Below, in pieces: positions 3,346 through 28,143 of a stretch of 64,000 nt of DNA. A model generated the notes under the pieces. The model saw nothing but the letters and a program-made list of their open reading frames with translations. It had not been told where the DNA came from and did no database searches. The stretch spans positions 42 through 64,041 of the forward strand of contig CAJVXY010000013.1 of NCBI GenBank assembly GCA_913009895.1, given 5' to 3'. The position numbers were made by a program, and so were the translations under genes. Source of the stretch: an uncultured Acidiferrobacteraceae bacterium (GTDB taxonomy: Bacteria; Pseudomonadota; Gammaproteobacteria; Acidiferrobacterales; SZUA-150). Within the stretch, counting starts at the first letter, position 1, and each line of letters begins with the position of its first letter.

Positions 3346-4008
3346 TTATTTCTTTCCTTTTCGATTAATACCATTCTCAACGGCAATAACTGCTGCCTCG
3401 ACCCGGGAGTGGACACCCAGTTTACGCAAAATTGCTTTCACGTGAAGCTTGACGGTGCCATCGGTAATATCCAGTTCCCGGGCAATGACCTTGTTACTCT
3501 GACCATCGGCAATATGACCTATGATTTCACTTTCACGGGGCGTCAGGTTATCTAGTCCTGCGTGCCTGTCAGTGGGTTTATCTGGCTCGTCAGTTTTCCC
3601 CTGGACAATTCGGGTAAGCGAGCCAATGAGTTCTTTGGCTACGACATTGTCACCGGATAATGCCGAATTTAATGCCGGCACCAGGTCTTCCGGGTCCATG
3701 TCTTTCAGCAAGTAACCCTGGGCGCCGCTGCGCAGTGCTTCAGCAAGGTCCTGTTCCTCGCGACTCATGGTTAACATCAATACTGGCGTTTCAATTTTTT
3801 CAGACCTGAGCATCTGCAGTGTTTCCGGGCCTGTCATGCCCGGCATTTTCATGTCGAGTAAAATAATATCCGGTTTTAGTTCTTTAGCCTTTTCTATGCC
3901 TTCCTGACCACTGCCGACAGAGGCAGCGATATCGATGCCACGGCTCTGTAGTAATGTTTCAATACCCTTGCGCACCAGGGCGTGATCGTCAATAAGAAGT
4001 ACGCGCAT
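3346..4008 (-). CDS. NarL/FixJ-family response regulator (REC + LuxR-type HTH)
   Basis: MRVLLIDDH...ILLDMKMPGMTG receiver domain. C-terminal LTPRESEIIGHIADGQSNKVIARELDITDGTVKLHVKAILRKLGV. Overlaps the kinase gene by 20 nt. Confidence 0.9.
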   Translation of the reverse strand: MRVLLIDDHALVRKGIETLLQSRGIDIAASVGSGQEGIEKAKELKPDIILLDMKMPGMTGPETLQMLRSEKIETPVLMLTMSREEQDLAEALRSGAQGYLLKDMDPEDLVPALNSALSGDNVVAKELIGSLTRIVQGKTDEPDKPTDRHAGLDNLTPRESEIIGHIADGQSNKVIARELDITDGTVKLHVKAILRKLGVHSRVEAAVIAVENGINRKGKK

Positions 4009-5587
4009 TGGTAATTTCTCGAATTAAATTTGTTGAGTTACTTTTTTTATGAACAGCTGGAAAGTTTAAAGAAATTTGAGTACCTTCTCCGGGCTCGCTT
4101 TCTATAAATAGCGCACCTTCCAGTCTCTGCGCCCGTTCCTTCATAATTGAAATGCCGATATTTTCACCGGGCCGTGAGATATGTCCCGCTGTCTCAGACG
4201 ATTCTATACCATGTCCGTCATCCTCGATGAGAATGATAAATTCTTCATCAAGGCCGTATTTTAATAAAATTCTGACATTTGAGGCGTCACTGTGTTTTCT
4301 AACATTGGTTAATGCTTCCTGAATGATTCTATATACCTGCACTTCCTGGACTGGTGAAAAACTGTATTCATTCCATTCGTTTTGCAAAAAAACAGATATT
4401 TTTGTTTCATCCTTAAACTTCAAAACCAGGTCTTTAATGGCAGGGACAAGTCCACGGTCATCAATTCGTGATTTATAATTGCCAAGCACATCACGCAAAT
4501 CTTCATGGGCCTCATCAATCGCGGTTTTCAGTCTTCTTACTTCGTTTTGTGCTCCTCGTATATCTTTTTTATATAATATTTCACCCAGCATTTTAATTTG
4601 CAGGCGCATGCTAACCAATGATTGGGCCAGGGAGTCGTGCAACTCGTTGCCAATCATATTTCGTTCTTCCATGATGGCTAATCGACGTTCATTATCATCA
4701 AGCCGTGATTTTTCAATAGCCAACCCCAGATGTTTACCGATACTATTTAATAGATCCCTGACGTCTCTTCCCAGTTCTTCGCTTGGTCGTTTCAAAAAGA
4801 GATTATAAATTCCAAGAATCTTTTCCCGGTACTGGAGCGGGACAACCACTAATTCGGCACAGCCATCAACAAGCAAATCCTGGCCAATTATTTTGTTGCA
4901 GGTTTCGATGCCTGTCTGGATACCAATGCCACCATTTTTTGTAATATTGCCGCAGAGACAACGATCAATATCCATGCAATTTTCCTGTTTTATGATTTCG
5001 CTGGAAAAACCCTTGCTTGCGATTAATACAGTAGAATTATTTTCAGTCAACAATCTGACGCTCGCGGCTTTAGCATCTACCAATACCATCAACGTATCAA
5101 GAAATTGTTCAAGCAAGTCGTCGAGATTTCTGGCGGTGCTTAAATCAGTGGCAATATCATATAAAATTTCCAGGGATCTACTTTTGGCTGCGATATGATC
5201 GGTTTTTTCTTGAACTCGAATGTCCATTTCTTCAATTAATCCGGAAACCTCGTGGGTTAAATTATTAACATCAGAAATAACGCCTTTAAAAGCCGTTTCT
5301 TCTGAAAGGGGTATGTCTGTCTGGAGATCACCTTTGCGTAAACGGTCGGACCATTTTTGGAGTTCTGTGAATGGCAGCAATAATTTTTTAATAACAAAGT
5401 AATATAAACCTGCTACAAGACCAAGCATCAGTATATCAATAGCGATGTAAAATATTGGCGTGCTGGCTGCCATTGCCTGACTGCCACTGATAAGCAATAC
5501 AATAGCAAGGATTGCAATCCCCAAAACAAGGACAGTAATGATTACAAGGGGATGAAAAATATTTAGTTTGTTAGTGGCCAGTTTCAT
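3989..5587 (-). CDS. NarX-class sensor histidine kinase (2 TM, HAMP, Cys-rich GAF, HisKA_3, HATPase)
   Basis: 532 aa with N-terminal TM helices. H-box ERNMIGNELHDSLAQSL. ATPase motifs DDGHGI and GENIGISIMKERA. Central GAF-like region carries 5 Cys (ENCMDIDRCLCGN...ETCNK...DGCAE). Confidence 0.85.
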   Translation of the reverse strand: MKLATNKLNIFHPLVIITVLVLGIAILAIVLLISGSQAMAASTPIFYIAIDILMLGLVAGLYYFVIKKLLLPFTELQKWSDRLRKGDLQTDIPLSEETAFKGVISDVNNLTHEVSGLIEEMDIRVQEKTDHIAAKSRSLEILYDIATDLSTARNLDDLLEQFLDTLMVLVDAKAASVRLLTENNSTVLIASKGFSSEIIKQENCMDIDRCLCGNITKNGGIGIQTGIETCNKIIGQDLLVDGCAELVVVPLQYREKILGIYNLFLKRPSEELGRDVRDLLNSIGKHLGLAIEKSRLDDNERRLAIMEERNMIGNELHDSLAQSLVSMRLQIKMLGEILYKKDIRGAQNEVRRLKTAIDEAHEDLRDVLGNYKSRIDDRGLVPAIKDLVLKFKDETKISVFLQNEWNEYSFSPVQEVQVYRIIQEALTNVRKHSDASNVRILLKYGLDEEFIILIEDDGHGIESSETAGHISRPGENIGISIMKERAQRLEGALFIESEPGEGTQISLNFPAVHKKSNSTNLIREITNARTSY

Positions 5588-5747: not shown

Positions 5748-6059
5748 TTATTTTTCAGGAGGTACATAATTCGGGTCATTTGGATTCATAAATATAAATT
5801 GCGGTTTTTTTTCTTCAACCTCCACATAATCTATTGTCATATCTTTCAAAAGATCCAGGATGGCAGGCGAAAAAACAACTGTTACGCCATTTTCCTGAAC
5901 CTGAACATCATCGTCCGTAGCCTCGTCAAATCCCATGCCGTATTCAAAAGCATTATTGTCATCTTTTTTCACCGCCAGTCTCAGGCTCATGCCCTCCATA
6001 CCACCTTCTTTTGCCGAGGCTAAAATCTGGTCGGCGGCTTTTTTTGATATCTTTATCAT
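5748..6059 (-). CDS. dsrR: DsrR, IscA/HesB-like protein lacking the Fe-S ligand cysteines
   Basis: MIKISKKAADQIL...MSLRLAVKK...YGMGFD is an IscA-like fold with no cysteine in the protein. It sits directly after dsrN, as in Allochromatium vinosum. I chose the internal Met (6059), 4 nt past the dsrN stop; the ORF could extend to 6098. Confidence 0.75.
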   Translation of the reverse strand: MIKISKKAADQILASAKEGGMEGMSLRLAVKKDDNNAFEYGMGFDEATDDDVQVQENGVTVVFSPAILDLLKDMTIDYVEVEEKKPQFIFMNPNDPNYVPPEK

Positions 6060-6063
6060 AGAA

Positions 6064-7440
6064 CTAGTCCTGTTTTTTAACGCGTGAAACAAATTCAAGA
6101 AATTCGTTGATCCAGGGATTTGATAACGTATTTCTCTGGTGTGCGTAAGTTGCGATTATATTATTTTTTATAAAACCATCCTGCCTGTTGGTAATGCCTT
6201 TTCCTCGAATGACATCAAAACCAAAGTTATATTTGTTGGAATTAAACTTTAGTTCAGAATAATGAAATTCATGGGCAGGCTGTTGTAGGTCTTGCTTGAT
6301 ATTATCATTAATCCAGGGGTGTTTTTCATTTTTTTTAAGGTAAACGTAACCTCTGCCTACCGGCCTGTCGTGCATAACGGAGCTTGCATCGATTACGCCA
6401 AGCATTTCAGAATACTCCCCATGCCAGTGGATACCATTACTTAAGTACATCAGGCCACCACATTCGGCATACACTGGCAGGCCTTTATTAATTTTGTCTT
6501 TAAGCAGGGCTCTCAATTCAGTATTGTCTTCCAGTTGCTTCATTCGGCTTTCTGGAAAACCGCCGCCAATAAACAAGCCATCTATCGGTGCAATCTGTTT
6601 ATCATTGATGGCATCAATAAAGACCAGTTTAGCGCCAGCTTGTTCAAATGCTTCCAGATCATCCTGGTAATAAAAACCAAATGCCTCGTCACGCAATATG
6701 CCTATGGTAAGCCCGGATGTTTTTTTTGTATCCATACCGGGTGCGATATCGTGTTTATCAACAGTGGCAGCAATATTTTTTAATTGTTCAATATCGATTT
6801 GTTTTGAGATATTTTCGGATATATTTTTTATTAATAAGTGAGCACTGGCGGTTTCATTGCTGGGTATCAGGCCAAGGTGTCTCTCAACAATCTCAAGTGA
6901 TGGGTCACGTTGGATGGCGCCCAATACGGGAATATCCGTGTACTCTTGTAAAACGCGCCGCAGTTTTTCTTCGTGGCGGTTACCGCCAACCTTGTTAAGT
7001 ATCACGCCGGCTATATTTACGTCAGGTTCGAATTTCTGAAAACCAAGCAAGAGTGGGGCAACACTTCGTGTAATACCCTGGGTATCAATCACCATAATTA
7101 CCGGGGTCTTAAGTAACTTTGCCAGGGCTGCACTACTGTTGCTGCCATCAAGATCAAGTCCGTCAGACAAACCCTTGTTGCCTTCAATAATGCTTATATT
7201 GGCGTTATTACTTTTAGAGTCGAATAAGTTTGTTATTTCATCATGGGTCTGGGTAAAAAAATCAAGATTATAACAGGGCCTGCCTGATGCCAGGGCCAGC
7301 CACATTGGGTCTATATAGTCGGGACCCTTTTTAAAGGGCTGAACCTTGAAATTTTTCTTATGAAGCGCTGCACATAAACCAAGTGTGACCGTGGTTTTAC
7401 CAGAGGATTTATGGGCTGCAGAAATTAATAAACGTGCCAT
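6064..7440 (-). CDS. dsrN: DsrN, cobyrinic acid a,c-diamide synthase-like siroheme amidase
   Basis: 458 aa. CbiA-type P-loop LISAAHKSSGKTTVTLGL. C-terminal glutamine amidotransferase region with YAECGGLMYL. Located in the dsr cluster. Confidence 0.85.
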   Translation of the reverse strand: MARLLISAAHKSSGKTTVTLGLCAALHKKNFKVQPFKKGPDYIDPMWLALASGRPCYNLDFFTQTHDEITNLFDSKSNNANISIIEGNKGLSDGLDLDGSNSSAALAKLLKTPVIMVIDTQGITRSVAPLLLGFQKFEPDVNIAGVILNKVGGNRHEEKLRRVLQEYTDIPVLGAIQRDPSLEIVERHLGLIPSNETASAHLLIKNISENISKQIDIEQLKNIAATVDKHDIAPGMDTKKTSGLTIGILRDEAFGFYYQDDLEAFEQAGAKLVFIDAINDKQIAPIDGLFIGGGFPESRMKQLEDNTELRALLKDKINKGLPVYAECGGLMYLSNGIHWHGEYSEMLGVIDASSVMHDRPVGRGYVYLKKNEKHPWINDNIKQDLQQPAHEFHYSELKFNSNKYNFGFDVIRGKGITNRQDGFIKNNIIATYAHQRNTLSNPWINEFLEFVSRVKKQD

Positions 7441-7443
7441 ACA

Positions 7444-8457
7444 TTAAGCAGCTGTTGAAAGACGATCCCGGTTCCTGTTTGCCCATAATTTGTTGGCCAG
7501 AGCTTCTGCATCTTTAAAGCTATCGGCCTGGCCGAGCATTTTCAGGACAATAGCCACAGTCCCGGTAATGGCCGCTTCGCCATATTCATTATTGCTTTCG
7601 CCACGCCAGACAGTAGTTAGTTCAGTAGGGTCTAGTGTGGCTGGTTTCACGTGTCTGCGGGGGAACATGGCCGGCCAGGTTTCATCAGCAAGGTTTTCGC
7701 CATGTAATGTTTTTACCAGGCAGTCCATATCAGGATTTCTTTCAATTTCTCCGCCTTCACCTTTGACTACCGCAGCATGTTTATGTTTTAGCAAAAGTGA
7801 GGCTTTTTGATGCATGGGGTGGTAAGCAGGGTGGTGAATGCCAGTAATCACGTATTCGGCATCAAACGGATTGAGCAGTCTTGCCACGGTGTGGACAGGA
7901 GAACGGAGACCAATGACAGGTCTGAGGTCTATGATTTCCTGAAGTCTTGGGGACATATTTTCCATATCAAGATAAGCAAAACCGGAAGTTTTTATTTGTT
8001 CGGCTGCTTCTTTTAGTGAAGTAGCGACGCCAATACCAAGCTGTTTCAATACATCCCGGGTATAGATACGGCCTTCAGTATGACCACTGGCACCATGCAT
8101 AAAAATATTAATATTATTTTCAGCTAGCAGCAGCGCGGCCAAAATATACCAGGGCAAATGTCTCCTCTTGCCGGCATAAGACGACCAGTCGATATGAATA
8201 ACAGGATGAGTCTTTGGAAAATTTTTAGTGTCGCGGAGTGTTTTTCGAATTGCATTTACAAAACCTGCAACTTCTTCTGGTGTTTCTTCTTTTACGCGCA
8301 TGAGTGTCAATATTGCGCCGAGCTGTTCGGGCGTGACTTCTTTGGCCATAATCATGGACATGACTGTTTCAGCTTCAGCCATAGAGAAATTACGCGAGCC
8401 CTTTCTTCCTTTGCCAAGGATTCGGACATATTGTGCGAATGGGTGTTCAGGAGTCAA
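7444..8457 (-). CDS. anthranilate phosphoribosyltransferase (TrpD)-fold protein, divergent, PRPP motifs degenerate
   Basis: 337 aa. N-terminal glycosyltransferase-family-3 helical domain (EAETVMSMIMAKEVTPEQLGAILTLMRVKEETPEEVAGFVNAIR). IDWSSYAGKRR replaces the GTGGD PRPP loop and MHGAS replaces KHGNR. Only 3 nt upstream of dsrN. Confidence 0.7.
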   Translation of the reverse strand: MTPEHPFAQYVRILGKGRKGSRNFSMAEAETVMSMIMAKEVTPEQLGAILTLMRVKEETPEEVAGFVNAIRKTLRDTKNFPKTHPVIHIDWSSYAGKRRHLPWYILAALLLAENNINIFMHGASGHTEGRIYTRDVLKQLGIGVATSLKEAAEQIKTSGFAYLDMENMSPRLQEIIDLRPVIGLRSPVHTVARLLNPFDAEYVITGIHHPAYHPMHQKASLLLKHKHAAVVKGEGGEIERNPDMDCLVKTLHGENLADETWPAMFPRRHVKPATLDPTELTTVWRGESNNEYGEAAITGTVAIVLKMLGQADSFKDAEALANKLWANRNRDRLSTAA

Positions 8458-18265: not shown

Positions 18266-19585
18266 TTATCCTGCAGCGGCTTCGGCTTTACGCTTGTTCC
18301 ACTTTTCGGCTTCGAGATCCCAGTCATCCATGCGCACATAAGAACCGGCACGAGGGGCGGTGATCATGTTTGGATCGACATCAATACCAATGCCTTCCAG
18401 GAAATTCACAAGACCGATACGTTCAATCATTTCACCGGTTCGTTCATGTTCCAGGGCATTTTCGGCAAAGAAATCGATGGTATCTTCAGCAATTCCTACC
18501 AGGCGATCATATTCTTCGTCGGTTTCAAGCTTCATGAAAGGAATAATGACAGTACCCATGGTGTCACCAATTTTCAGCGTACGTTTGCCGCCGATTAATA
18601 ATGTTATGCCATGGTCATCGCCCGGTGATAACGCTTTGGTCATGACGTTGATGCAATGCATACAACGAACACAGTTACGGTTATCAACTGCGAGTGTGTT
18701 GTCATCATTAAGTGAAAGGGCGTTGGTGGGGCAACGACTGATGACATTATCAACCATGTATTTCTGCCCTTTGGCTTCAACAAATTTTTTCACTTCATCC
18801 TGATCAACTTTCATATCATCGCGCCAGGTGCCAATGACCGCAAAGTCTGAACGATGGATAGAGTTCATGCAGTCATTGGGACAACCAGAAACCTTGAATT
18901 TGAACTTGTATGGCAGTGCAGGGCGATGCATGTCATCCATAAAGTTGTTCACCAACAAACGGTGAATCTTGTGCTCGTTCGCACAAGACTGTTCGCATCG
19001 GGCGGCGCCAATACAGGACATGCCGGTTCGAACACAAGGTCCGGCACCACCAAGATCCCAGCCGTATTCATTGATTTCATCAAAGAAATGCTGCGTATTT
19101 TCAGATGTGGTGCCAATAAACATGATGTTGCCTGTCTGGCCATGGAAAGCAATCAAGCCTGAACCGTATTTATCCCAGCTGCTTGATAATTTACGCAACA
19201 TATCAGTTGTGTAGTGGTTAGCGGGTGGAGGTTGTACACGCAAGGTATGAAATTCTTTTGCCGCTGGAAACATAGGTGAGCCCTTTGAATCCATCAGTTC
19301 GGTAAAACGGGGGATGATGCCGCCGCCATAACCGAAAACAGAAACAGTGCCACCTTTCCAGTAGCCCAGTCTTGTCTTGTAAGAGTGCTCAAGCTGACCA
19401 AGGAGATCGACCATCATGTCGCTTTCCAGCGCCAATCGTTTCAGGCCGGTGACAAAACTTGGCCATGGACCACTTTCGAGTTGATCCAGCATCGGTGTAT
19501 CGTGAAATGGCTTGTCAGAATTCTTCTGATCAAGCGGAAGATAGGTGCTATGTACTTTTGGATTCTTGGGCTTTTTGTCTGCCAT
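18266..19585 (-). CDS. dsrA: reverse-type dissimilatory sulfite reductase alpha subunit
   Basis: PMLDQLESGPWPSFVTGLK near the N-terminus, plus CPNDC and CVRCMHCINV cluster motifs. I placed the start at the Met preceded by AGGAGA 8 nt upstream (19585); the ORF could extend to 19624. Confidence 0.95.
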   Translation of the reverse strand: MADKKPKNPKVHSTYLPLDQKNSDKPFHDTPMLDQLESGPWPSFVTGLKRLALESDMMVDLLGQLEHSYKTRLGYWKGGTVSVFGYGGGIIPRFTELMDSKGSPMFPAAKEFHTLRVQPPPANHYTTDMLRKLSSSWDKYGSGLIAFHGQTGNIMFIGTTSENTQHFFDEINEYGWDLGGAGPCVRTGMSCIGAARCEQSCANEHKIHRLLVNNFMDDMHRPALPYKFKFKVSGCPNDCMNSIHRSDFAVIGTWRDDMKVDQDEVKKFVEAKGQKYMVDNVISRCPTNALSLNDDNTLAVDNRNCVRCMHCINVMTKALSPGDDHGITLLIGGKRTLKIGDTMGTVIIPFMKLETDEEYDRLVGIAEDTIDFFAENALEHERTGEMIERIGLVNFLEGIGIDVDPNMITAPRAGSYVRMDDWDLEAEKWNKRKAEAAAG

Positions 19586-19782
19586 TAATATGTCTCCTAA
19601 ACGTGCCATTAATGCTTTATGCATTAACGATTGGGTTCCGTTTGACTCCGTATACCAAATCTAGGGGCGCTCATTATTCAGATTTCTCCACATACTTGCA
19701 ATGGCTATTTCAAAAATAAACAAACGCACCAGTAAAGTTCCGGAACGAATTCTATGTCTTGAGCAGGTATCGAAAAACCGGT

Positions 19783-19821
19783 CTTTGGGGGGAGGTAAAA
19801 TTAACTTATCCCCCCCCAAAG
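19783..19821. promoter_or_regulatory. perfect 10-bp G/C-run hairpin in the dsrA / divergent-operon control region
   Basis: CTTTGGGGGG (19783-19792) pairs with CCCCCCAAAG (19812-19821) across a 19-nt AT-rich loop. On the minus strand it is followed by ACCGGTTTTT. It lies about 200 nt upstream of the dsrA start. Confidence 0.4.
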
Positions 19822-20110
19822 TGGATATAAGAAATGTTGAGTATTTGTATAATTTTAAAAGAAAATATAACAATTTTTCTTTAAAAACAGTAAGTAATGT
19901 ACTCTTTATAATGTTTTATCTAGGTATATTTTTAATCGATAAGAACATAAATTTTGAATGGAGAATGGTGTGTTAATAGTCTTTTTTTAAGCGCAGGATT
20001 GTTCTACATTGCCGCCACAGAATAAATCTTCACTTATCTTTGAAAAAGTGTCGATCTTGAACTTCAAGTTGTATCACATTTAATTGCACTAAGTTAGATA
20101 GAAACTATAC

Positions 20111-21028
20111 ATGACTAAAGCCAATATTAACCCTGAGCCAAGCCAGAATCCCTTTGCCTTGGGCAATCAGGAGGTTTATTTGCGCTGGCAAGAGCAGAAG
20201 CTGGCCGCTTATCCTGAATTGGCAGGCCAGCTCATTGTAGAGGTAAGGGACCCCAGGGCCCTCTCCCGAGCAGAAAAGCAGAAAATTACCGAGTTATGTC
20301 AAAAGACCAATATGGCTATTTACCAGTCAGAGGTGAAGGATGCGGACAAGGATGTACCCAGGTTACTGGGCAGGCAAATGGGCCTGACTAATCTTGATCC
20401 TAACATGCTGGCCGATGAGGACGGAATTACTTCCCTCGAATTGATGCCGGCCAAACATGAGCGGGGCTATATCCCTTATTCAAACAGGCGGTTATTGTGG
20501 CATACGGATGGGTACTACAACGATTCCAGCCATCGAATTGCGGCCATGTTGTTACATTGTGTGCGTCCGGCACTTTCAGGTGGTGAAAACAGCCTGCTTG
20601 ATCACGAAATGGTCTATTTATTGTTACGCGAACAGGATCCAATGTATATCAAGGCGTTAATGGATCCTGAGGCCATGACTATCCCCGCCAATCTTGAGGC
20701 TGGTGAAGTTGAGCGTCCTGCCCAATCGGGGCCAGTATTCAGTACCAATGAACAGGGCTCATTAAGTATGCGTTATACGACCCGAGTTCGCAGCATAATC
20801 TGGAAGGACAATATTGCCACTAAATCAGCCGTTGAAGCCCTGGCAAATATTTTAGACAGTGATTGTAAGTACATATTTCATCACCGTCTCGAGGCAGGAC
20901 AGGGTATTATTTGCAACAATGTGCTCCACAACAGGACCAGCTTTAAAAATGGTGAATCAACTGCAACCCAAAGACTGATTTACCGGGCAAGGTACTATGA
21001 CCGCATAAACAGTGGCACTGATAAATGA
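20111..21028 (+). CDS. TauD/TfdA-family Fe(II)/2-oxoglutarate dioxygenase
   Basis: 305 aa. LLWHTDGYY gives the HxD iron ligands. The distal VLHNRTSF supplies His and Arg. Overall length and layout fit the family. Confidence 0.7.
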   Translation: MTKANINPEPSQNPFALGNQEVYLRWQEQKLAAYPELAGQLIVEVRDPRALSRAEKQKITELCQKTNMAIYQSEVKDADKDVPRLLGRQMGLTNLDPNMLADEDGITSLELMPAKHERGYIPYSNRRLLWHTDGYYNDSSHRIAAMLLHCVRPALSGGENSLLDHEMVYLLLREQDPMYIKALMDPEAMTIPANLEAGEVERPAQSGPVFSTNEQGSLSMRYTTRVRSIIWKDNIATKSAVEALANILDSDCKYIFHHRLEAGQGIICNNVLHNRTSFKNGESTATQRLIYRARYYDRINSGTDK

Positions 21029-21062
21029 AAGAATCAGACGAATTGAAAGACGGGAGTTAGGT

Positions 21063-21260
21063 ATGCTTAATTTAAGTGAAATAATGATGGAGCATCATGA
21101 GCTCGAAACATTTGAAGCGCTCATTGAAACTGTAAAAAGCAAAGCCGGGCAAGACATGTTCTTTCGCATTGATATTAAGCCAACCTATCCAGACACACCT
21201 GCCAACTGGGAGGACCAGCTGGAGGGGGCATTTTCTGGTGTCAATTCCGTTACCAGGTAA
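21063..21260 (+). CDS. small hypothetical protein (65 aa)
   Basis: ATG preceded by GGGAG about 8 nt upstream. Lies 34 nt after the dioxygenase gene. Acidic, with no recognisable motif. The ORF-track start at 21012 overlaps the upstream gene. Confidence 0.4.
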   Translation: MLNLSEIMMEHHELETFEALIETVKSKAGQDMFFRIDIKPTYPDTPANWEDQLEGAFSGVNSVTR

Positions 21261-21309
21261 CTTTTAAAATCAAAAGATAACGACACAGTATTAATTAAGA
21301 GAATTCAAG

Positions 21310-22017
21310 ATGAAATATTTAAAAGAAGATGTGGGCATGAATGACGCTGACAGTATTGATGACGCTGCAATATCAACTGTTCGCCTGGAACAACAAATGG
21401 AGGCACTAGAAGACAGACTCCGTGAATTACCTGCAGATAGTGGTCCGGTAGAACGTGCCGACCTGGAACTCAATATCGCAGCCACCCTGGTGGATCTTGA
21501 TCGATCAGCGGAAGGTTTTGCCAAGGCCAGGGCTTGTCTTGATGTTTTTTTACAAACAGAAGACTGGGAGCTGGCAGCCCAGGCCTGTGACGTCATGTTC
21601 AATGCGGACCAGGAGGATTCCCTTGCAGCATTGGGCCAGGGTATTTGGCTGGCGGTCACTTATCCTGTTGACCCGGAGTTAACGGTTGCCATTTTACAGC
21701 ATGTCATTGACGAAACACCGGATGATTCTGATGGCGGGGCATTGGCTGCTGCCACAGCGCGATATATTGTTGATATGCGTGCCGAGGGCAAGCAAAAGGA
21801 CAACCTTGTTTTTTTTGCGAACAATCTACTGGGCACTGTGGCACGACGCCATAGCAATATTGAAAACCAGGCTGACTTCCAGGCATGGATCGAAAAACTG
21901 GAATTGAATGATCCAGATAAATTTCTGATTAGGTTGCGAAATGTGGTTGATGTGCTGGTCCAGGAGAACTGGTGGTTTGATCGCGATGCACTGCGCGAAC
22001 GATTACCGTTAAATTAA
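21310..22017 (+). CDS. acidic hypothetical protein (235 aa)
   Basis: Long ORF with normal composition in an operon context. No motif I can assign. Confidence 0.6.
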   Translation: MKYLKEDVGMNDADSIDDAAISTVRLEQQMEALEDRLRELPADSGPVERADLELNIAATLVDLDRSAEGFAKARACLDVFLQTEDWELAAQACDVMFNADQEDSLAALGQGIWLAVTYPVDPELTVAILQHVIDETPDDSDGGALAAATARYIVDMRAEGKQKDNLVFFANNLLGTVARRHSNIENQADFQAWIEKLELNDPDKFLIRLRNVVDVLVQENWWFDRDALRERLPLN

Positions 22018-22036
22018 CTTATCTAATCTTATTGAT

Positions 22037-22720
22037 ATGTACTGGCAAGAAGAAAACAAAAGGGATGTTGCAATATCTGATGAGGTCCAGGACCTGGTTT
22101 ACAAGATCAGGTGCACCTCGTTACCAGTTGATCATGCCTTTGCGTTAGCCGAAGAAATTATTTCTTTCTTGCCCTGGATGGCCACGGAAACAGGGGCCGG
22201 TATTCATTCAATTCATGTGGCGGATTCAGGCAACGGCTGGATGCGGCCTGAAAATCCCGATGAACTATTACATCTTTCAAGACGCACAAAACTGATTCTG
22301 AGGGTGCCAAAAAATCGCCTGGAATCGGCATTGTCCCTGGTTGATGAGACCCTGGATATTGCCGGCAATAAAATGATCATAGAGTCTGTAGAACAGCGGC
22401 CATTAAGTAAAATAACAACCTTATTCTGTCGTTATCTTGTTTTTTCCGAGCAGCAGGAAGCAGAAAATATATTTCTCGATAAGGCCATGCAGGCCCTGCA
22501 AGAGATAAATGTCATCCCAAAAAAATTGTTACCCGGACTGGAAAAGACTATCCAAAAACCCGGGAAAATGATAAAAACTCGCAGCTTGATGATTGCAGGC
22601 ATATCCGCGGAGGAGTCCTTTAAATTACAGCAAAAAGGGCTTGGTATGCACCATCATTTAGGTTGTGGCATTTTTATACCACACAAGGATATTGAAGAGA
22701 TCGGCAAAACACCAGAGTGA
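22037..22720 (+). CDS. Cas6/Cmx6-like (RAMP-fold) protein, orphan (no CRISPR array)
   Basis: 227 aa. The N-terminus (LVYKIRCTSLPVDHAFALAEEI) and the C-terminal glycine-rich loop QQKGLGMHHHLGCGIFIPHK resemble what I recall of the subtype I-MYXAN Cas6 (Cmx6) family. This needs HMM confirmation. Confidence 0.45.
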   Translation: MYWQEENKRDVAISDEVQDLVYKIRCTSLPVDHAFALAEEIISFLPWMATETGAGIHSIHVADSGNGWMRPENPDELLHLSRRTKLILRVPKNRLESALSLVDETLDIAGNKMIIESVEQRPLSKITTLFCRYLVFSEQQEAENIFLDKAMQALQEINVIPKKLLPGLEKTIQKPGKMIKTRSLMIAGISAEESFKLQQKGLGMHHHLGCGIFIPHKDIEEIGKTPE

Positions 22721-22770
22721 TGCTGGTGTTATGACCGACAATTAATTATTTAACCTATGGGGAATACATC

Positions 22771-23109
22771 ATGGCTTTTGAAGTAGACGGTAAAGAAATT
22801 GAAACAACAGCAAGTGGTTTTTTGGTCAATATCGATGACTGGAGTGAAGATCTGGCAAAAGTTATATCCGATGATGAAGGTGTTGAATTGACAGAAAAAC
22901 ACTGGGACTTGATTAAGTACTTGCGTGATGAGTTTGTTAACAATAATGGCAACCAGCCAAATACCAGAAAAATTGTCAAAGCGATGGGCCAAAAATGGGG
23001 CGAAAGCATCGACACAAAAAAACTCTATGAATTATTCCCTCGTGATCCTTCCAAACAAGCTGGCAGAATAGGCGGCCTGCCTGAATCACGAAGAAAGGGC
23101 GGATACTAA
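22771..23109 (+). CDS. TusE/DsrC-family protein lacking both C-terminal cysteines
   Basis: 112 aa, aligns by eye with the dsrC in this window (HWDLIKYLRDEF / HWEVIKFLREYY; LYELFP in both). The tail is QAGRIGGLPESRRKGGY rather than QACKYAGLPKPTGCV. The protein contains no cysteine. Confidence 0.85.
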   Translation: MAFEVDGKEIETTASGFLVNIDDWSEDLAKVISDDEGVELTEKHWDLIKYLRDEFVNNNGNQPNTRKIVKAMGQKWGESIDTKKLYELFPRDPSKQAGRIGGLPESRRKGGY

Positions 23110-23126
23110 GACCGGTACTTTTCTCG

Positions 23127-23975
23127 ATGTCGTTTACTACCCTGGTGACCACTGCCGAAGTCGCGGCACATCTTGATGATCCTGATTGGGTAATTTTTGA
23201 TTGTCGCTTTACCCTGACAGACGCGACTGTGGGCAGAAAGGCATACCATGAAGGTCATATTCCAGGCGCGATTTATGCGCACCTGGATGATGATCTTGCC
23301 GCACCAGTTAATGCAATCAGTGGCCGTCATCCCTTGCCGGATGCAGATGTTTTATCTGCCAAGCTGGGCACATGGGGTGTGGACAAGAATACGCAAATTG
23401 TTGTTTATGATGACGCGTTTGGCGCCATGGCCTGCAGGATGTGGTGGTTGTTGCGATGGTTGGGTCATGACCACGTAGCGTTACTGGACGGCGTCTATCC
23501 CAAGTGGTGCCGGGAAAAAAGACCAACGGATAACCTGCCTGAAAAACCCGTCGCCAGGAAGTTCGTGGCCAATGTACAAGCTGATATGGTAGTTGATGCT
23601 GATGCTGTAATTACCCATCTGGCAAATGAATCAGGCCCCCTGGTTGATGCCAGGCCGGATGTTCGTTTTTCAGGAGAGGTCGAGCCAATTGATAAAGTAG
23701 CTGGCCATATACCGGGGGCCACCAATCGCCCATTTGACGATAACCTGAATATTGGTGGAGACTTTCTGCCGATTGCAGAACTAAAGGAAGAATTTTCCCC
23801 TTTCCTGACGATCAAAAATCCCGCTCAAATTATACATATGTGCGGTTCAGGCGTGACCGCATGTCATAACATTCTGGCAATGGAACATATTGGTATTAAA
23901 GGCACGAGATTATATGTGGGCAGCTGGAGTCAGTGGATCACTGACCCGGACCGCAAGATAACGGCAGGGGAATGA
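23127..23975 (+). CDS. sseA: tandem-rhodanese sulfurtransferase, 3-mercaptopyruvate sulfurtransferase type
   Basis: 282 aa with two rhodanese domains. Active-site loop CGSGVTA, which is the MST-type loop. Confidence 0.8.
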   Translation: MSFTTLVTTAEVAAHLDDPDWVIFDCRFTLTDATVGRKAYHEGHIPGAIYAHLDDDLAAPVNAISGRHPLPDADVLSAKLGTWGVDKNTQIVVYDDAFGAMACRMWWLLRWLGHDHVALLDGVYPKWCREKRPTDNLPEKPVARKFVANVQADMVVDADAVITHLANESGPLVDARPDVRFSGEVEPIDKVAGHIPGATNRPFDDNLNIGGDFLPIAELKEEFSPFLTIKNPAQIIHMCGSGVTACHNILAMEHIGIKGTRLYVGSWSQWITDPDRKITAGE

Positions 23976-24039
23976 CCAGGGAATAGAAAAAAATTACAGT
24001 AGCTAACAACCAGTAACCGGATTAACCAGACGGCAGCGA

Positions 24040-24780
24040 CTACTTTGGTTTCGGAACATCGAACTTGTATTGTTTATCTTTATATTTAAATCCAACTGGT
24101 TGTGCTTTATCAGTTTCCCATGTATGTAAAAGCAAGCCCGCTTTATCGAATACGGTTATTTGGGTGCGAGGTTGGCCGTCACGGACCAGCGAAGAAAGAA
24201 TCCAGAATACTATGCCATCGTCCGATGAGCCAAATTTGAAAGCATTTGGTGCGTGGGGCAGTTCAGCTACCAGCCTGCCATTTTTATCCAGTAAAATACT
24301 TTTATCCAGGTTGTAATTTTTGGCGCGCTGGCCAAGCAATATTCGATCACTCGGCGTAGCAATAATTACTTCGCCCCTGAATTCCGTTTCTTTATTTATA
24401 AGAATACCGCTGTAGTCGTAAATACGAATTTCACTACGGCTGCCTTCGAAAAAGGACATAAATTTAATAACAGCAACTCTTTGCCATTTATTAATTTTTA
24501 CAACGTTTTCCCTATAATAGATTGGCTCTTGTTTGCGGTAAGCATCCAGTGGTTTTTCGTGCAGTTGCCGGCGTTTGTAATATTCAATGACTCTGCCACC
24601 AACGAAATTTATTGTTCCCTCATCAACTAATGGCAATGACTCGTCCTTGTCCATGGTAGGGCCAAGCTTTTCCTCCAGGTCAGTTTTACTTTGTTGCGAT
24701 GCAACAGGACTTTCTGTCGCAGAAATTGCGACAGGAATGGTGAGTAAAAATAGCAGTGGTAAAAAGTGCTTGAAACTCAT
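24040..24780 (-). CDS. secreted hypothetical protein
   Basis: The internal Met gives MSFKHFLPLLFLLTIPVAISA, a signal peptide. The longer ORF (to 24879) would overlap msrB. No recognisable domain. Confidence 0.55.
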   Translation of the reverse strand: MSFKHFLPLLFLLTIPVAISATESPVASQQSKTDLEEKLGPTMDKDESLPLVDEGTINFVGGRVIEYYKRRQLHEKPLDAYRKQEPIYYRENVVKINKWQRVAVIKFMSFFEGSRSEIRIYDYSGILINKETEFRGEVIIATPSDRILLGQRAKNYNLDKSILLDKNGRLVAELPHAPNAFKFGSSDDGIVFWILSSLVRDGQPRTQITVFDKAGLLLHTWETDKAQPVGFKYKDKQYKFDVPKPK

Positions 24781-24796
24781 TTGGGCACAATATTCC

Positions 24797-25228
24797 TTAT
24801 TCTTTTGCAATAAAATCCAGTGATGCCGAGTTAATACAATATCGAAGGCCCGTAGGCTCAGGCCCATCTTCAAATACATGGCCCAAATGACCGTGACATA
24901 ACGAACAGATCACTTCTTTTCGCATCATTCCGTGGCTCTCATCTATTACTTCGGAGACACTCTCAGTTTTAGCAGGTTGCCAGTAACTTGGCCAGCCTGT
25001 TTCAGAGTCAAATTTATTGTCAGATAAAAATAGCGCCTGACCGCAGCATTTACAGGTGTAGGTGCCTTCATCTTTCTGGTCCCAATATTCGCCCGTAAAA
25101 GCTCTTTCTGTGCCATGGCAACGAGTAATAGTATAGTCATCGGGGCTTAGCTGTGATCGCCACTCGTCGTCCGTTTTGAATATGGCTGGTTTTGTTTTTT
25201 TTGCCGACAAAGCTAAACCTCGCTCCAC
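24797..25228 (-). CDS. msrB: peptide-methionine (R)-S-oxide reductase
   Basis: Two CxxC zinc motifs (CKCCG, CSLCHG), GHLGHVF, and catalytic RYCINS. Confidence 0.9.
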
Positions 25229-25887
25229 ATGCGAACAAGATTGGTATAGGTATGATCAATTTGTGCCGTTTCTTCTGCGCCTGGTGCCTGGGCCAGCATT
25301 TTTTCACGGGCGAGACTCAGCTCATACAAGAGTTCTCTTTTAGCCGGATCACGTACCAGGCTTTGTATCCACAAGACCGCAACAAGCCGCTGTCCTTTGG
25401 TTACTTCGCTGACATGGTGCAGACTGGAAGCTGGATAACAAACTGCATCACCAGCAGATAGTTTAGTGCTGGTTTGACCAAAGCTTGTATTGACAACCAG
25501 CTCGCCACCTTCATAGTCATCAGGTTCAGAGAGAAAGATCGTGACTGCAACATCCGTTCGATAACGTTCCGGCCAGTTTCCGGTTACCGGATCATCGATA
25601 TGGTCACCATAAGACATACCTTTTTCATACTTGGCAAAGAATGGCTGGGAAACTTTATGAGGTAAGGTAGCATTACGGAATATAATGTTCTGACTTAACG
25701 AGCTCACCACCAAATCATCGAGATAAGCAGCTTGTTGGGAATTTTGATCAAGCTCAAGATTTGTTTTGACTTTTTTAGCGGCACTGCCAGCTGATAATTT
25801 GCCATCTACAAAACTGGCTTGTGACAAGACTTTAGAAATATTTTTTAGTTTTCCCTGATCAAGAATATTGGGTATTATAATATACAT
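25213..25887 (-). CDS. PKHD-type Fe(II)/2OG hydroxylase (YbiX/PiuC family)
   Basis: 224 aa, colinear with E. coli YbiX as I recall it: YGDHIDD (HxD), [26 protein letters not shown]. Overlaps msrB by 16 nt. Confidence 0.85.
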
Positions 25888-25895
25888 TCTATTAA

Positions 25896-26249
25896 TTATT
25901 TCTTCGATTCGGTTTGCGTAAATTCTGTTTGTGTAAATTCAGTTCCGAGGGGTTCACCAGACGTGTCAATATTTACACCTGTCACATTTGGCATGCGTGT
26001 CAAAATATAACCTGCCATTAGCATTAATAAATTTTCATTCTGTGTATCAACGGCCTGGAGAATTTTTTCAGAAGCAATTTGACAGCGGTTGATCAGCGTG
26101 GGTTGTTCAATAAATTCTGGCCCCATTTGCCAGCCTCGATCCATGTCCCGATCCATTTTTTCAAAAAAAGGCTCACCATTTGTGAATATGTCTTCAGGAA
26201 TTTCAAGTTCCCTGGTTTTGTCTTCAATTGTTATTTTTAGTTTCATCAA
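25896..26249 (-). CDS. hypothetical protein (117 aa)
   Basis: ORF 8 nt upstream of the hydroxylase gene on the same strand. The C-terminus carries a TEFTQTEFTQ tandem repeat. No known motif. Confidence 0.5.
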   Translation of the reverse strand: MMKLKITIEDKTRELEIPEDIFTNGEPFFEKMDRDMDRGWQMGPEFIEQPTLINRCQIASEKILQAVDTQNENLLMLMAGYILTRMPNVTGVNIDTSGEPLGTEFTQTEFTQTESKK

Positions 26250-26300: not shown

Positions 26301-27353
26301 TCACGCGGCAGGAAGCAAGGCATGCATTTGAGCCTCAATATCGCCCCGGGCTTTTGCGCCTTTTGTTTTGTATGTCTCCATGGCCTGTGCCGCAATTTTT
26401 TGCCAACGATCAATACCGCTGCAAATTAATGACGACATTGCGCCTGTTTTTTTAGTTTCTACCCACTGTTCATAGGCGTGCCTTAGCTCCGGGAACAAAT
26501 GTTTGCGTAAACCGGAATAATTTGCAAAATAAAAATGCATGGATAAATTTTTTTCTTTTTCAAGCAAGGAGGGTAATGTGACCAGGCAGTCAGCCAGAAT
26601 ATCTCGCACCGCTCTTAAAAAGAACTCGGCCCTGGAGCCAGACATATCATTCATAAGCATGTGCCAGTTGGTATCAAGTTGGTAACCAGCCTTAATTTCG
26701 CCAAGCTCATGCAATATCATTGTTTCTGTTTCAGTTTCAACCAGCATATCCAGAATCGGTTCAATATTATCCAGGTTTTTCCATTCTGCCAGTACGTTTT
26801 TCATTGGGCCTGTTTTATTTTTGTTCAGGCGCCATTCTTCAATTCTTTCCCAGATAAAACGCCGCATGGACTCTTGTCTGATAAAAATATCATTATCAAT
26901 ACTCATAGCTGGCGGGGCCACCAGGTCCCTGGCGAACTCAGCGGTGGAAATATAAATATTTAAATTATCTTGTTGCCTGGTTTCAGAAAGTTTACCGATA
27001 AAAAAATGTGGTTTGCCAAAAATTCCAACACCACTGCTATAGACATGGCCTTGTGATATTAATTCTTTGTTTATTTTATCGGTCTCAAAGGGCCCATATT
27101 CCCGGGAGAGTTTAATCGGCTGATAGTCTTTATTGGCAATTTCGGCCCAGTGGTGTTCGCGCTTTGCCAGCCAATCGCCGATATCATGCTGGGACATGTT
27201 AGCACTGAAATTCAACCTGTTTTCCCAACGGTAGTATTCACGCATTTTTAACAGGTAAGTACACATGGAGTAATTACCCGCATACTGGGCATCTGATAAA
27301 TCACAGTTTTGCTGTACCCGTTCAATTAACCCAGGACTTAAAGGATTTTTCAT
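26301..27353 (-). CDS. hypothetical protein (350 aa)
   Basis: Long ORF with normal composition and first in the minus-strand gene string. No motif I can assign. Confidence 0.6.
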   Translation of the reverse strand: MKNPLSPGLIERVQQNCDLSDAQYAGNYSMCTYLLKMREYYRWENRLNFSANMSQHDIGDWLAKREHHWAEIANKDYQPIKLSREYGPFETDKINKELISQGHVYSSGVGIFGKPHFFIGKLSETRQQDNLNIYISTAEFARDLVAPPAMSIDNDIFIRQESMRRFIWERIEEWRLNKNKTGPMKNVLAEWKNLDNIEPILDMLVETETETMILHELGEIKAGYQLDTNWHMLMNDMSGSRAEFFLRAVRDILADCLVTLPSLLEKEKNLSMHFYFANYSGLRKHLFPELRHAYEQWVETKKTGAMSSLICSGIDRWQKIAAQAMETYKTKGAKARGDIEAQMHALLPAA

Positions 27354-27555
27354 AGCATGACTATCCCAATAATTTTATACCATTGATATGCTTTTTAGCA
27401 TGACTTGTCTTTAGTGCCAAATCACGAAAGACAGGGTAATTCTTTGTCGTTTTATGTCCGACAGGTGTCAGGGCCGGCATGTCATTTGTCATTTGACCCG
27501 CAAGTACCACAAACACATAATGTGTAATCACCGTCATTTATCCCTTATTTATCAA

Positions 27556-28143
27556 ATGCACACAAGACGAAATATCAAAGAAGTCGAACCGAATTCATTT
27601 ATTTATGAAATAAACAGGGCCCTTCCCGGGGATATCTGCCAGGAAATGATTCGTCGTTTTGACAAATACAAAAATGAGCAATATGCGGGGCGAATTGGTC
27701 AGACAGCTGAAGAGCATAACGACATCAAACGCTCAACAGACCTGGTTATTAGCGGCAAAGAACACTGGCGGGATCTCGATCGGGCCTTATTCCAGTCCCT
27801 GGGAGCGGTAATTCACCAGTTCCGGGAAACATTTCCCTATTTCAAAGGCCCCTTCAAGGATATGGGTTATGCCATTCAACGCACCAGTCCGGGTGAATTT
27901 TATCATTGGCATATTGATGGCGGCAGTCACGAGTTTAGCCAGCGTCAGTTAGTCGCAGTTTGGTATTTAAATGACGTACCGGGCCCGGGGGGTGAAACAG
28001 AATTTAAATTCCAGCATGTAAAAATTAAACCTGAACAGGGAAAATTGGTGTTGTTCCCGCCTTTTTGGACCCATGAGCATCGTGGCGTAACGCTGGAATC
28101 GGGAATAAAATACATCGCCACGACCTGGGTTATTTTTGCCTGA
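27556..28143 (+). CDS. 2OG-Fe(II) oxygenase superfamily protein (prolyl-4-hydroxylase-like)
   Basis: YHWHIDGG (HxD) and the distal FWTHEHRG. The start is uncertain: the ORF opens at 27454, and I chose Met35 because the preceding 34 residues are His/Cys/Arg-rich and look non-native. Confidence 0.7.
   Translation: MHTRRNIKEVEPNSFIYEINRALPGDICQEMIRRFDKYKNEQYAGRIGQTAEEHNDIKRSTDLVISGKEHWRDLDRALFQSLGAVIHQFRETFPYFKGPFKDMGYAIQRTSPGEFYHWHIDGGSHEFSQRQLVAVWYLNDVPGPGGETEFKFQHVKIKPEQGKLVLFPPFWTHEHRGVTLESGIKYIATTWVIFA

Follow-up and report, generated by a model that had tools for sequence, protein, structure and literature searches.

A dsrA-linked operon pairing a Cas6-family protein with a cysteine-free DsrC-like protein in an Acidiferrobacterales genome and other sulfur oxidizers

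Chemotrophic sulfur oxidizers that use dissimilatory sulfite reductase (Dsr) carry a tauD-like gene, dsrQ, divergent from dsrA; the gene was named by Lenk et al. (2012), as cited by Löffler et al. (2020, PMC7596348), and it has been reported in (facultatively) aerobic chemotrophs and also beside dsr in Roseobacter fosmids, Myxococcales and Verrucomicrobia (PMC7596348). Its product has been speculated to release sulfite from sulfonates (PMC7596348, PMC9371685). The small, non-essential protein DsrD, formerly regarded as a regulator that binds nucleic acids, has since been demonstrated to activate DsrAB allosterically (Ferreira et al. 2022, PMC8794893). Exaptation of Cas proteins, i.e. components of clustered regularly interspaced short palindromic repeat (CRISPR) systems, was reviewed by Koonin and Makarova (2022, PMC8730458), and a dsr-linked Cas6 is not mentioned in that review. 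Here we describe a 64,000-nt stretch of contig CAJVXY010000013.1 from an uncultured Acidiferrobacteraceae bacterium (the window), in which an operon divergent from dsrA encodes a DsrQ followed by, among others, a Cas6-family protein (Cas6L) and a DsrC/TusE-family protein without cysteine (DsrCL). The window comes from a lineage of Acidiferrobacterales metagenome-assembled genomes (MAGs) and carries the operon in an extended, six-gene form.

An initial annotation, made from the sequence alone, had placed six open reading frames (ORFs) at positions 20111-23975, all on the plus strand and separated by gaps of 34, 49, 19, 50 and 17 nt. Both the positions and the gaps were reproduced exactly in our analysis, and profile searches agreed with its domain calls, namely a TauD-family protein, two proteins without a family, a Cas6, a cysteine-free DsrC-like protein and a rhodanese. 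The operon, the control region and dsrA were laid out as follows:

18266-19585, minus strand: dsrA, an ORF and the first gene of the dsr cluster; its start at 19585 is backed by orthologues
19586-20110, no strand: shared divergent control region, 525 nt, 33% GC versus about 45% for the window
20111-21028, plus strand: dsrQ, TauD/TfdA-family Fe(II)/2-oxoglutarate (2OG) dioxygenase, 305 aa (PF02668, E = 3.4e-18, 67 bits)
21063-21260, plus strand: U65, acidic protein with no family, 65 aa (no Pfam, NCBIfam or PADLOC match; 60 orthologues)
21310-22017, plus strand: U235, predicted all-alpha helical-repeat protein with a generic resemblance to tetratricopeptide repeat (TPR) proteins, 235 aa (no Pfam, NCBIfam or PADLOC match)
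22037-22720, plus strand: Cas6L, stand-alone Cas6-family protein of the PF09559/Cmx6 type, 227 aa (Pfam, TIGR02807, PDB, and AlphaFold2 (AF2) with Foldseek)
22771-23109, plus strand: DsrCL, DsrC/TusE-family protein without cysteine, 112 aa (PF04358, E = 3.8e-33)
23127-23975, plus strand: tandem rhodanese of the 3-mercaptopyruvate sulfurtransferase (MST; SseA) type, 282 aa (PF00581, two copies)

On the minus strand the dsr cluster was arranged in the order dsrABEFHCMKLJOP, a YbiB/TrpD2-like gene, dsrN, dsrR and a NarX/NarL-type two-component system; the divergent gene set was, as had been claimed, outside the canonical dsrABEFHCMKLJOPNR.

The linkage of these genes to dsr was determined in two collections. 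In the genome scan, in which one genome per species was searched with the Cas6L alignment as query, at least 575 relatives were found, the best 80 loci were analysed with labels assigned by phmmer using the window's own proteins, and 41 of these 80 had enough flanking sequence. The metagenome scan served as an independent reverse test, being anchored on the DsrCL tail PES[RM]RKGGY; it returned at least 579 relatives, the best 80 of which were analysed. Among the 41 well-flanked genome loci, dsrA was located within 6 kb of Cas6L in 40, and DsrCL, the TauD-like gene and the rhodanese were present in 39, 35 and 16, respectively. In the metagenome loci, Cas6L was immediately upstream of DsrCL in 60/64 and dsrA was divergent in 31/33, while TauD, U65 and U235 were found in 41, 42 and 13 of 44 loci, respectively, and the rhodanese in 7/61. 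Chance can hardly account for the arrangement, since two independent collections, each searched with its own anchor protein, both show it. Based on the per-gene presence counts in both collections, the core unit is made up of four genes, dsrQ-U65-Cas6L-DsrCL, and U235 and the rhodanese are lineage-specific additions. Thus, the proposal of the initial annotation that the genes form one conserved unit was borne out for linkage in both collections, and co-occurrence with dsrAB was tight and specific (40/41 and 31/33 loci); the two unknowns did not prove to be housekeeping families, but the boundary drawn around six genes did not hold, given the scarcity of U235 (13/44 metagenome loci) and of the rhodanese (7/61 metagenome and 16/41 genome loci).

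Several departures from the core were noticed. Some Thiohalomonas and Sedimenticola loci (MAGs) had lost the dioxygenase gene dsrQ and kept the remaining genes, betaproteobacterial loci kept U235 and were missing U65, and, as rare exceptions, DsrCL was found alone in L082, L107, L146 and L154. The loci analysed all belong to proteobacterial lineages related to one another, and each scan was followed up for its 80 closest matches only, so that the arrangement might be put down to inherited synteny with no functional tie to Dsr. We regard this as highly improbable, because the pairing persists across Gamma- and Betaproteobacterial lineages despite changing surroundings: the intergenic region can be as short as 148 nt or longer than 800 nt, loci differ by gain or loss of U235, U65, the rhodanese and dsrQ, the downstream genes are reshuffled in order and orientation, and a conserved element (described below) is restricted to the shared intergenic region.

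Cas6L scored above the cutoffs of two Cas6 models, with 189 bits (E = 8.7e-56; cutoff 26.7) against PF09559 and 119 bits (cutoff 98.85) against TIGR02807 Cas6/Cmx6. When the family profile was compared with PDB, it matched the Cas6 of a type I-B CRISPR-associated transposon (CAST), 8fcj_B, with an E-value of 1e-21. The AF2 model (predicted local distance difference test (pLDDT) score 87) retrieved the same chain as the top Foldseek hit (template modelling (TM) score 0.74-0.78, E = 6e-15), followed by archaeal Cas6 and Cse3, and the 46 best matches were all Cas6, Cse3, Cascade or other Cas entries of the repeat-associated mysterious protein (RAMP) type. On the predicted structure, Cas6L is a genuine Cas6 having the double ferredoxin-like RAMP fold with a glycine-rich loop. 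Clustering at 50% identity divided the family into 1452 clusters when matches with E <= 1e-3 were admitted and into 274 with a limit of 1e-30, the members being uniformly about 210-250 aa long; domain fusions that would show partnerships were found neither in 150 representatives nor in 120 close homologues.

Alignment of 146 representatives revealed near-universal residues at G67-W68, R83, R89, R132, E143, G167, the glycine-rich loop and K217. R83, R89, R132 and K217 were at least 92% conserved, H33 was 89% conserved (range 87-89% for H33 and H57), and in the C-terminal glycine-rich loop, GxGxxGCGxFxPHK, conservation of G201, G203, G209 and G211 was 91-97%. The G67-W68 pair is situated in a near-invariant, clade-specific insertion loop, (S)GNGW(M)RP, which is missing from the CAST Cas6. 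The protein is acidic, with an isoelectric point (pI) of about 6 and a family median of 6.3. A cysteine relay via Cas6L was also considered and rejected: C26 and C210 are invariant in close relatives, yet they are conserved in only 58% and 79%, respectively, of the same representatives.

Automated annotation would place Cas6L in a remnant or variant CRISPR-Cas system, or another defence system, lying beside dsr by chance, since PGAP-style models name it "type I-MYXAN CRISPR-associated protein Cas6/Cmx6" and the Cas6 models of the defence library PADLOC match it. This explanation is effectively refuted. No CRISPR-like arrays were detected in the 64-kb window (Tandem Repeats Finder) or in 161 sequences consisting of the window and 160 loci (k-mer spacing scan), no other cas genes were recognised in the Cas6L flanks, where the neighbours identified by homology were dsr and operon genes, and the other five proteins of the operon had no match in the defence library. 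In addition, the top 120 Cas6L clusters shared at least 50% identity and the gene order was fixed; such high sequence conservation together with a fixed gene order is atypical of defence genes. Cas6L was not found in viral contigs. Judged from the lack of arrays and from its gene neighbourhood, Cas6L is not doing CRISPR work. It was noticed that this non-CRISPR clade exceeds the thresholds of the curated equivalog model TIGR02807 and of the Cas6 models in PADLOC, for which reason hundreds of dsr-linked genes are annotated as type I-MYXAN CRISPR-associated Cas6/Cmx6. A Thiohalomonadaceae contig (L072, 8001-8675) encoded a Cas6L of the same clade away from any dsr gene and without DsrCL, with NYN-domain, Xre-antitoxin-like, Hpt and HAD-hydrolase genes as neighbours.

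The partner of Cas6L, DsrCL, was assigned to the DsrC/TusE family by both PF04358 (114.6 bits) and TIGR03342 (98.6 bits), each above cutoff, and was 38% identical to the true DsrC of the window, which ends in ...KPTGCV. It lacks the penultimate sulfur-binding cysteine (Cys111 in A. vinosum), with all 67 orthologues ending in ...RKGGY instead, and alignment to 1yx3 placed a glycine or alanine (PSKQAG/PSKQGG) at the position of A. vinosum Cys100, located about 10 residues before the penultimate cysteine, where DsrC has QAC. Because both functional cysteines are missing, DsrCL would be unable to form a persulfide or trisulfide. The C-terminus, GLP(E/Q)(S/T)xRKGGY, was invariant in the 67 orthologues, and the window copy reads ...GLPESRRKGGY; the base of the arm, PSKQ..I.GLP, is kept, and the tip, ESRRKGGY, is basic and two residues longer than that of DsrC. 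The public names of such proteins are "TusE/DsrC/DsvC family sulfur relay protein" or "tRNA 2-thiouridine synthesizing protein E"; here the names of DsrCL (sulfur relay, TusE) are misleading, as are those of Cas6L (Cas6/Cmx6).

Other members of the DsrC family were seen in the loci. A phage-like contig (L161, IMGVR_UViG_3300032087_002997) carried at 5974-6315 a stand-alone DsrCL gene whose product ends in ...PESRRKGGY, without Cas6L, the other genes being for a Mom-like DNA-modification protein, an endonuclease and PHROG unknowns. This gene is a possible auxiliary metabolic gene, and its occurrence alone suggests that DsrCL is able to act on the machinery of the host with no partners encoded alongside it. 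In L126 (9124-9751), a further DsrC-like paralogue, coming after a Rieske-like 100-aa ORF, ended in ...QQACKISGMRQPKKLWLDL, with the first cysteine kept and the terminal one lost, and further downstream DsrC-like paralogues were present in L105, L147 and the betaproteobacterial L033, L043, L054 and L058.

The last gene of the operon encodes a rhodanese whose active-site loop, MCGSGVTAC, was conserved in 29 orthologues; the CG[ST]GVTA loop is one that we take to be the signature of MST. The nearest solved structure was E. coli SseA (1urh, E = 2e-31), and the protein stayed below the equivalog level (NF008557, 142.6 bits versus a cutoff of 250). A rhodanese of this type with an intact CGSGVTA loop, the membership of DsrCL in a sulfur-relay family, and the position of the module adjoining dsrAB and dsrEFH would fit a sulfur-trafficking route, in which the rhodanese mobilises sulfane sulfur that is passed through the module to DsrEFH, DsrC or DsrAB. 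Such a route is improbable, for DsrCL and U65 are free of cysteine, the two Cas6L cysteines are conserved to the limited extent given above, and the rhodanese itself is missing from 25/41 genome and 54/61 metagenome loci.

The first gene of the operon corresponds to dsrQ, being tauD-like, immediately upstream of dsrA and divergent from it, so that it is not new, the name having been given by Lenk et al. (2012; cited in PMC7596348). Only dsrQ has been named so far; no literature on the remaining genes of the module as a unit was found, nor was any found linking Cas6 with dsr or DsrC. A non-CRISPR Cas6 paired with a cysteine-free DsrC therefore appears to be undescribed. In 62 DsrQ orthologues, the iron triad H131-x-D133...H273 and the residues R288, R292 and R294, whose roles were assigned by motif position, were at least 95% conserved, in the contexts WHTDGYYN (H131, D133) and NNVLHNR (H273). 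No TauD equivalog was matched by DsrQ; the best NCBIfam models, TmpA, TMLD and BBOX, gave 33-35 bits against cutoffs of 268-415, and solved structures in PDB gave no sequence match at E <= 0.01.

With its TauD-family membership and intact Fe/2OG site, DsrQ could cleave sulfonates oxygenolytically, freeing sulfite from an intracellular or ambient sulfonate, with the other genes being unrelated passengers or helpers, in line with the idea stated previously (PMC7596348, PMC9371685). We consider this quite unlikely as an account of the locus. Besides the unmatched TauD equivalogs and the lack of a sequence match in PDB, the operon contains neither a transporter nor a sulfonate regulator, and the account leaves unexplained the stricter pairing of Cas6L with DsrCL, which is kept where dsrQ has been lost.

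The remaining two proteins are acidic and have no family. In U65, the conservation of M1, L4, S5 and E6 in the 60 orthologues indicated that translation starts at the ATG at 21063 and not at an upstream GTG; the protein has a pI of 4.5, no cysteine and the conserved motif D.KP.YPDTP.NWED.LEGAF. U235 had 3830 homologues, none carrying a Pfam domain, and no sequence match among solved structures. Its AF2 model (pLDDT 88.9) is all-alpha with 11 helices, and Foldseek against PDB, with a best E-value of 0.012, matched it to a mixture of TPR, 14-3-3 and proteasome-lid proteins, no TM score exceeding 0.51, which amounts to a generic resemblance. The protein is very acidic, with a net charge of -20.

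The initial annotation had also assigned a common control region to dsrA and the operon, and this was borne out, the intergenic region carrying an element found almost only there:

19783-19835, plus strand: operator-like element, cTTT-G6-AGGTAA...TTATC-C8-aaag-TGGATATAag, consisting of a G-run box, a C-run and a GGGATATA box

Its general form, yTTT-G(4-7), about 15-22 nt, C(3-8)-aaa-GGGATATA, was present in at least 38 of 62 intergenic regions of the genome loci. The GGGATATA box is located 32-36 nt downstream of the G-run with constant orientation, giving a composite element of about 34 nt, and a regular expression for the composite matched about 30 intergenic regions and just 2 other sites in 2.0 Mb. 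In many lineages the 3' part of the element is a 16-bp palindrome, TAYCYH-N4-DRGRTA, which was found in 32 of 89 intergenic regions; the loci, 1.49 Mb altogether, contained 36 matches, 32 of them in these regions. A second motif, AGTCTAG, lying about 40 nt from the G-run box towards dsrA, occurred in 17 of 62 regions versus 0.5 expected; examples are L048, L053, L062 and L087-L119, and the intergenic region of the window has no exact copy. A fixed-distance sigma-70 -10 box was not conserved downstream of the element, and a promoter consensus scan gave fewer promoter-like sites than shuffles did.

The element of the window can be folded as an approximately 15-bp hairpin with an energy of -24 kcal/mol (z -2.3 to -3.1), and the lengths of the G-run and the C-run track each other across loci. 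Together with the true Cas6 fold, the conserved GxGxxGCGxFxPHK loop and the conservation of R83/R89/R132/K217 (at least 92%) and H33 (89%), these properties would suit post-transcriptional control, in which Cas6L, as a working RNA-binding protein or endoribonuclease, would bind or cut a leader hairpin of dsr or dsrQ, with DsrCL as a sensor or partner, replacing control of the DsrS type. Several results make this rather doubtful. No arm covariation was detected, the own arms pairing no better (-13.0 kcal/mol) than arms taken from other loci (-14.0 kcal/mol) and 4899 of 5000 permutations being as good, and the palindrome half-sites vary independently (TATCTC..GGGATA, TATCCC..GAGATA), which breaks pairing on one RNA strand or the other. 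Rfam searches of the whole window at the gathering threshold and of 19400-24200 at E <= 1 gave only an unrelated tRNA and no family in the control region, and no such motif was found near the stand-alone Cas6L of L072 or L080. Moreover, Cas6L is acidic, whereas characterised Cas6 enzymes are basic. The element as an RNA ligand of Cas6L was accordingly downgraded. Of the earlier description of Cas6L as a RAMP-fold, putatively RNA-binding protein, the fold was confirmed as that of Cas6; the RNA-binding label was not, in view of the pI of about 6 and the hairpin without covariation.

Since covariation is lacking and the half-sites vary independently, a DNA operator is a better reading of the element than an RNA hairpin, and the element is probably a DNA-binding site for a dimeric regulator. 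Its 7-2-7-like geometry recalls NarL-type sites. At its end, the dsr cluster encodes at 3346-5587 a sensor kinase resembling NarX/NarQ and a response regulator resembling NarL, the latter at 3346-4008. A NarL-type regulator is thus a candidate binder of the palindrome, which we offer only as a lead. Given a conserved, position-specific palindromic element in the shared intergenic region, dsrAB and the dsrQ operon are very probably under joint control, as far as can be read from the sequence.

We propose that an accessory module of the oxidative (reverse) Dsr pathway, widespread in chemotrophic Gamma- and Betaproteobacterial sulfur oxidizers, is present here in its full form of six genes and acts at the protein level on the DsrAB/DsrC step and not as a sulfur carrier, a proposal to which we give a probability of roughly 0.4. 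As the DsrC globule and the arm base are kept and the tip is replaced, DsrCL could dock at the sites used by DsrC (on DsrAB, DsrEFH and DsrK) without being a substrate. By analogy with DsrD for the reductive DsrAB, it might be a decoy, a plug or an allosteric modulator. Cas6L would be a Cas6 fold exapted outside CRISPR, and the acidic Cas6L and U65, plus the TPR-like U235 where present, may be binding partners or an adaptor of DsrCL, which makes their contacts candidates. DsrQ would add an O2-dependent step, such as hydroxylation of a partner or small molecule, or release of sulfite, and the MST-type rhodanese would be an optional add-on. The initial annotation had suggested an accessory sulfur-trafficking or regulatory module for Dsr; the accessory nature is upheld by the linkage, sulfur trafficking is made improbable by the cysteine-free DsrCL and the mostly missing rhodanese, and a regulatory role is plausible from the conserved control region.

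Three points weigh against the proposed action at the protein level. First, the modelled Cas6 fold, the glycine-rich loop, the invariant arginines and the 89% conservation of H33 are equally compatible with RNA binding. Second, dsrQ is found with dsr in other lineages, and DsrQ may have an independent role. Third, the analysis took in the 80 closest relatives from each scan, out of at least 575 in one and at least 579 in the other, and distant members could sit in other contexts. A more specific form of the proposal is put forward tentatively and is possible at best: a Cas6 exapted from CRISPR and a cysteine-free DsrC with RKGGY as its functional tip would constitute a switch on oxidative DsrAB, plugging or activating the enzyme itself or else binding the mRNA of dsr, and this switch would be made oxygen-responsive by DsrQ and perhaps by two nearby 2OG oxygenases. 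If true, this switch would explain how aerobic or facultative sulfur oxidizers tune the O2-sensitive reverse Dsr (rDsr) pathway.

Downstream of the operon, the following genes recur within 8 kb of Cas6L in a set of 44 loci, with a linkage looser than that of the core, and they are seen again in metagenome loci with varied order and orientation:

24797-25228, minus strand: msrB (26/44 loci)
25213-25887, minus strand: YbiX-like Fe2+ dioxygenase (22/44 loci)
25896-26249, minus strand: unknown protein of 117 aa (18/44 loci)
26301-27353, minus strand: Sfum_1244/DUF6866 protein (17/44 loci)
27454-28143, plus strand: 2OG-Fe(II) oxygenase (13/44 loci)

The recurrence of two more Fe(II)/2OG oxygenases, MsrB and the Sfum_1244/DUF6866 protein hints at an oxygen theme, the Fe/2OG oxygenases around the locus being three when dsrQ is counted. 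In the dsr cluster, the YbiB/TrpD2-like "glycosyl transferase family" gene is located at 7444-8457, between dsrP and dsrN, and a similar YbiB-like gene follows a 2OG oxygenase in the SUP05-like locus L126 (7999-9120).

Sulfur oxidation based on rDsrAB ranks among the major routes of the sulfur cycle worldwide, and among the lineages with the module are groups that abound in marine sediments and water columns, as many of the metagenome loci are from marine samples. The four-gene module is nearly as faithfully linked to dsrAB as dsrEFH and marks a gap in the pathway model; it offers a testable handle on the control or protection of Dsr in aerobic sulfur oxidizers. Cas6L would clearly exemplify the recruitment of one Cas6 for a role outside defence. 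The labelling of hundreds of these genes as CRISPR-associated by curated Cas6/Cmx6 models is a systematic annotation error that inflates counts of "orphan cas genes".

Compared with described systems, the operon shows both likenesses and differences. The published dsrQ has the same position and the same divergence from dsrA; the accessible literature, however, treats it as a single gene, and the genes for U65, the Cas6-like protein and the cysteine-free DsrC are not described in those accounts, although they are linked even more strictly. With DsrC, TusE and RspA (A. vinosum DsrC, 1yx3; E. coli TusE), DsrCL shares the fold family and the arm base P-x-K-Q...GLP, but it lacks both cysteines, its tip is longer, basic and invariant, and it matches the cysteine-less class. 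As with DsrD, a small Dsr-linked accessory protein would act on DsrAB at the protein level, an analogy that is functional only; there is no relation in sequence or fold, and DsrD belongs to reductive systems. The Rhd-TusA-DsrE2 and DsrEFH relay likewise has a rhodanese near dsr genes and a DsrC-family protein as the presumed end point; in contrast, the operon has neither TusA nor DsrE2, its would-be acceptor is free of cysteine, and its rhodanese is a tandem MST/SseA-type protein that is mostly missing.

As for Cas6 itself, the CAST protein (8fcj chain B) resembles Cas6L in sequence family, in the Cas6 fold with two RNA recognition motifs and in the glycine-rich loop, while Cas6L has no array or cas neighbours, is acidic rather than basic, possesses the extra GW loop, is very highly conserved and has a fixed DsrC-like partner. 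The known Cas exaptations, i.e. Streptomyces cas5-8 with STAND and the haloarchaeal HRAMP (PMC8730458), also involve Cas-derived RAMP proteins without arrays or adaptation genes, as here; those are multi-Cas modules presumed to be still defensive, whereas the present case is a single Cas6 inside an energy-metabolism locus.

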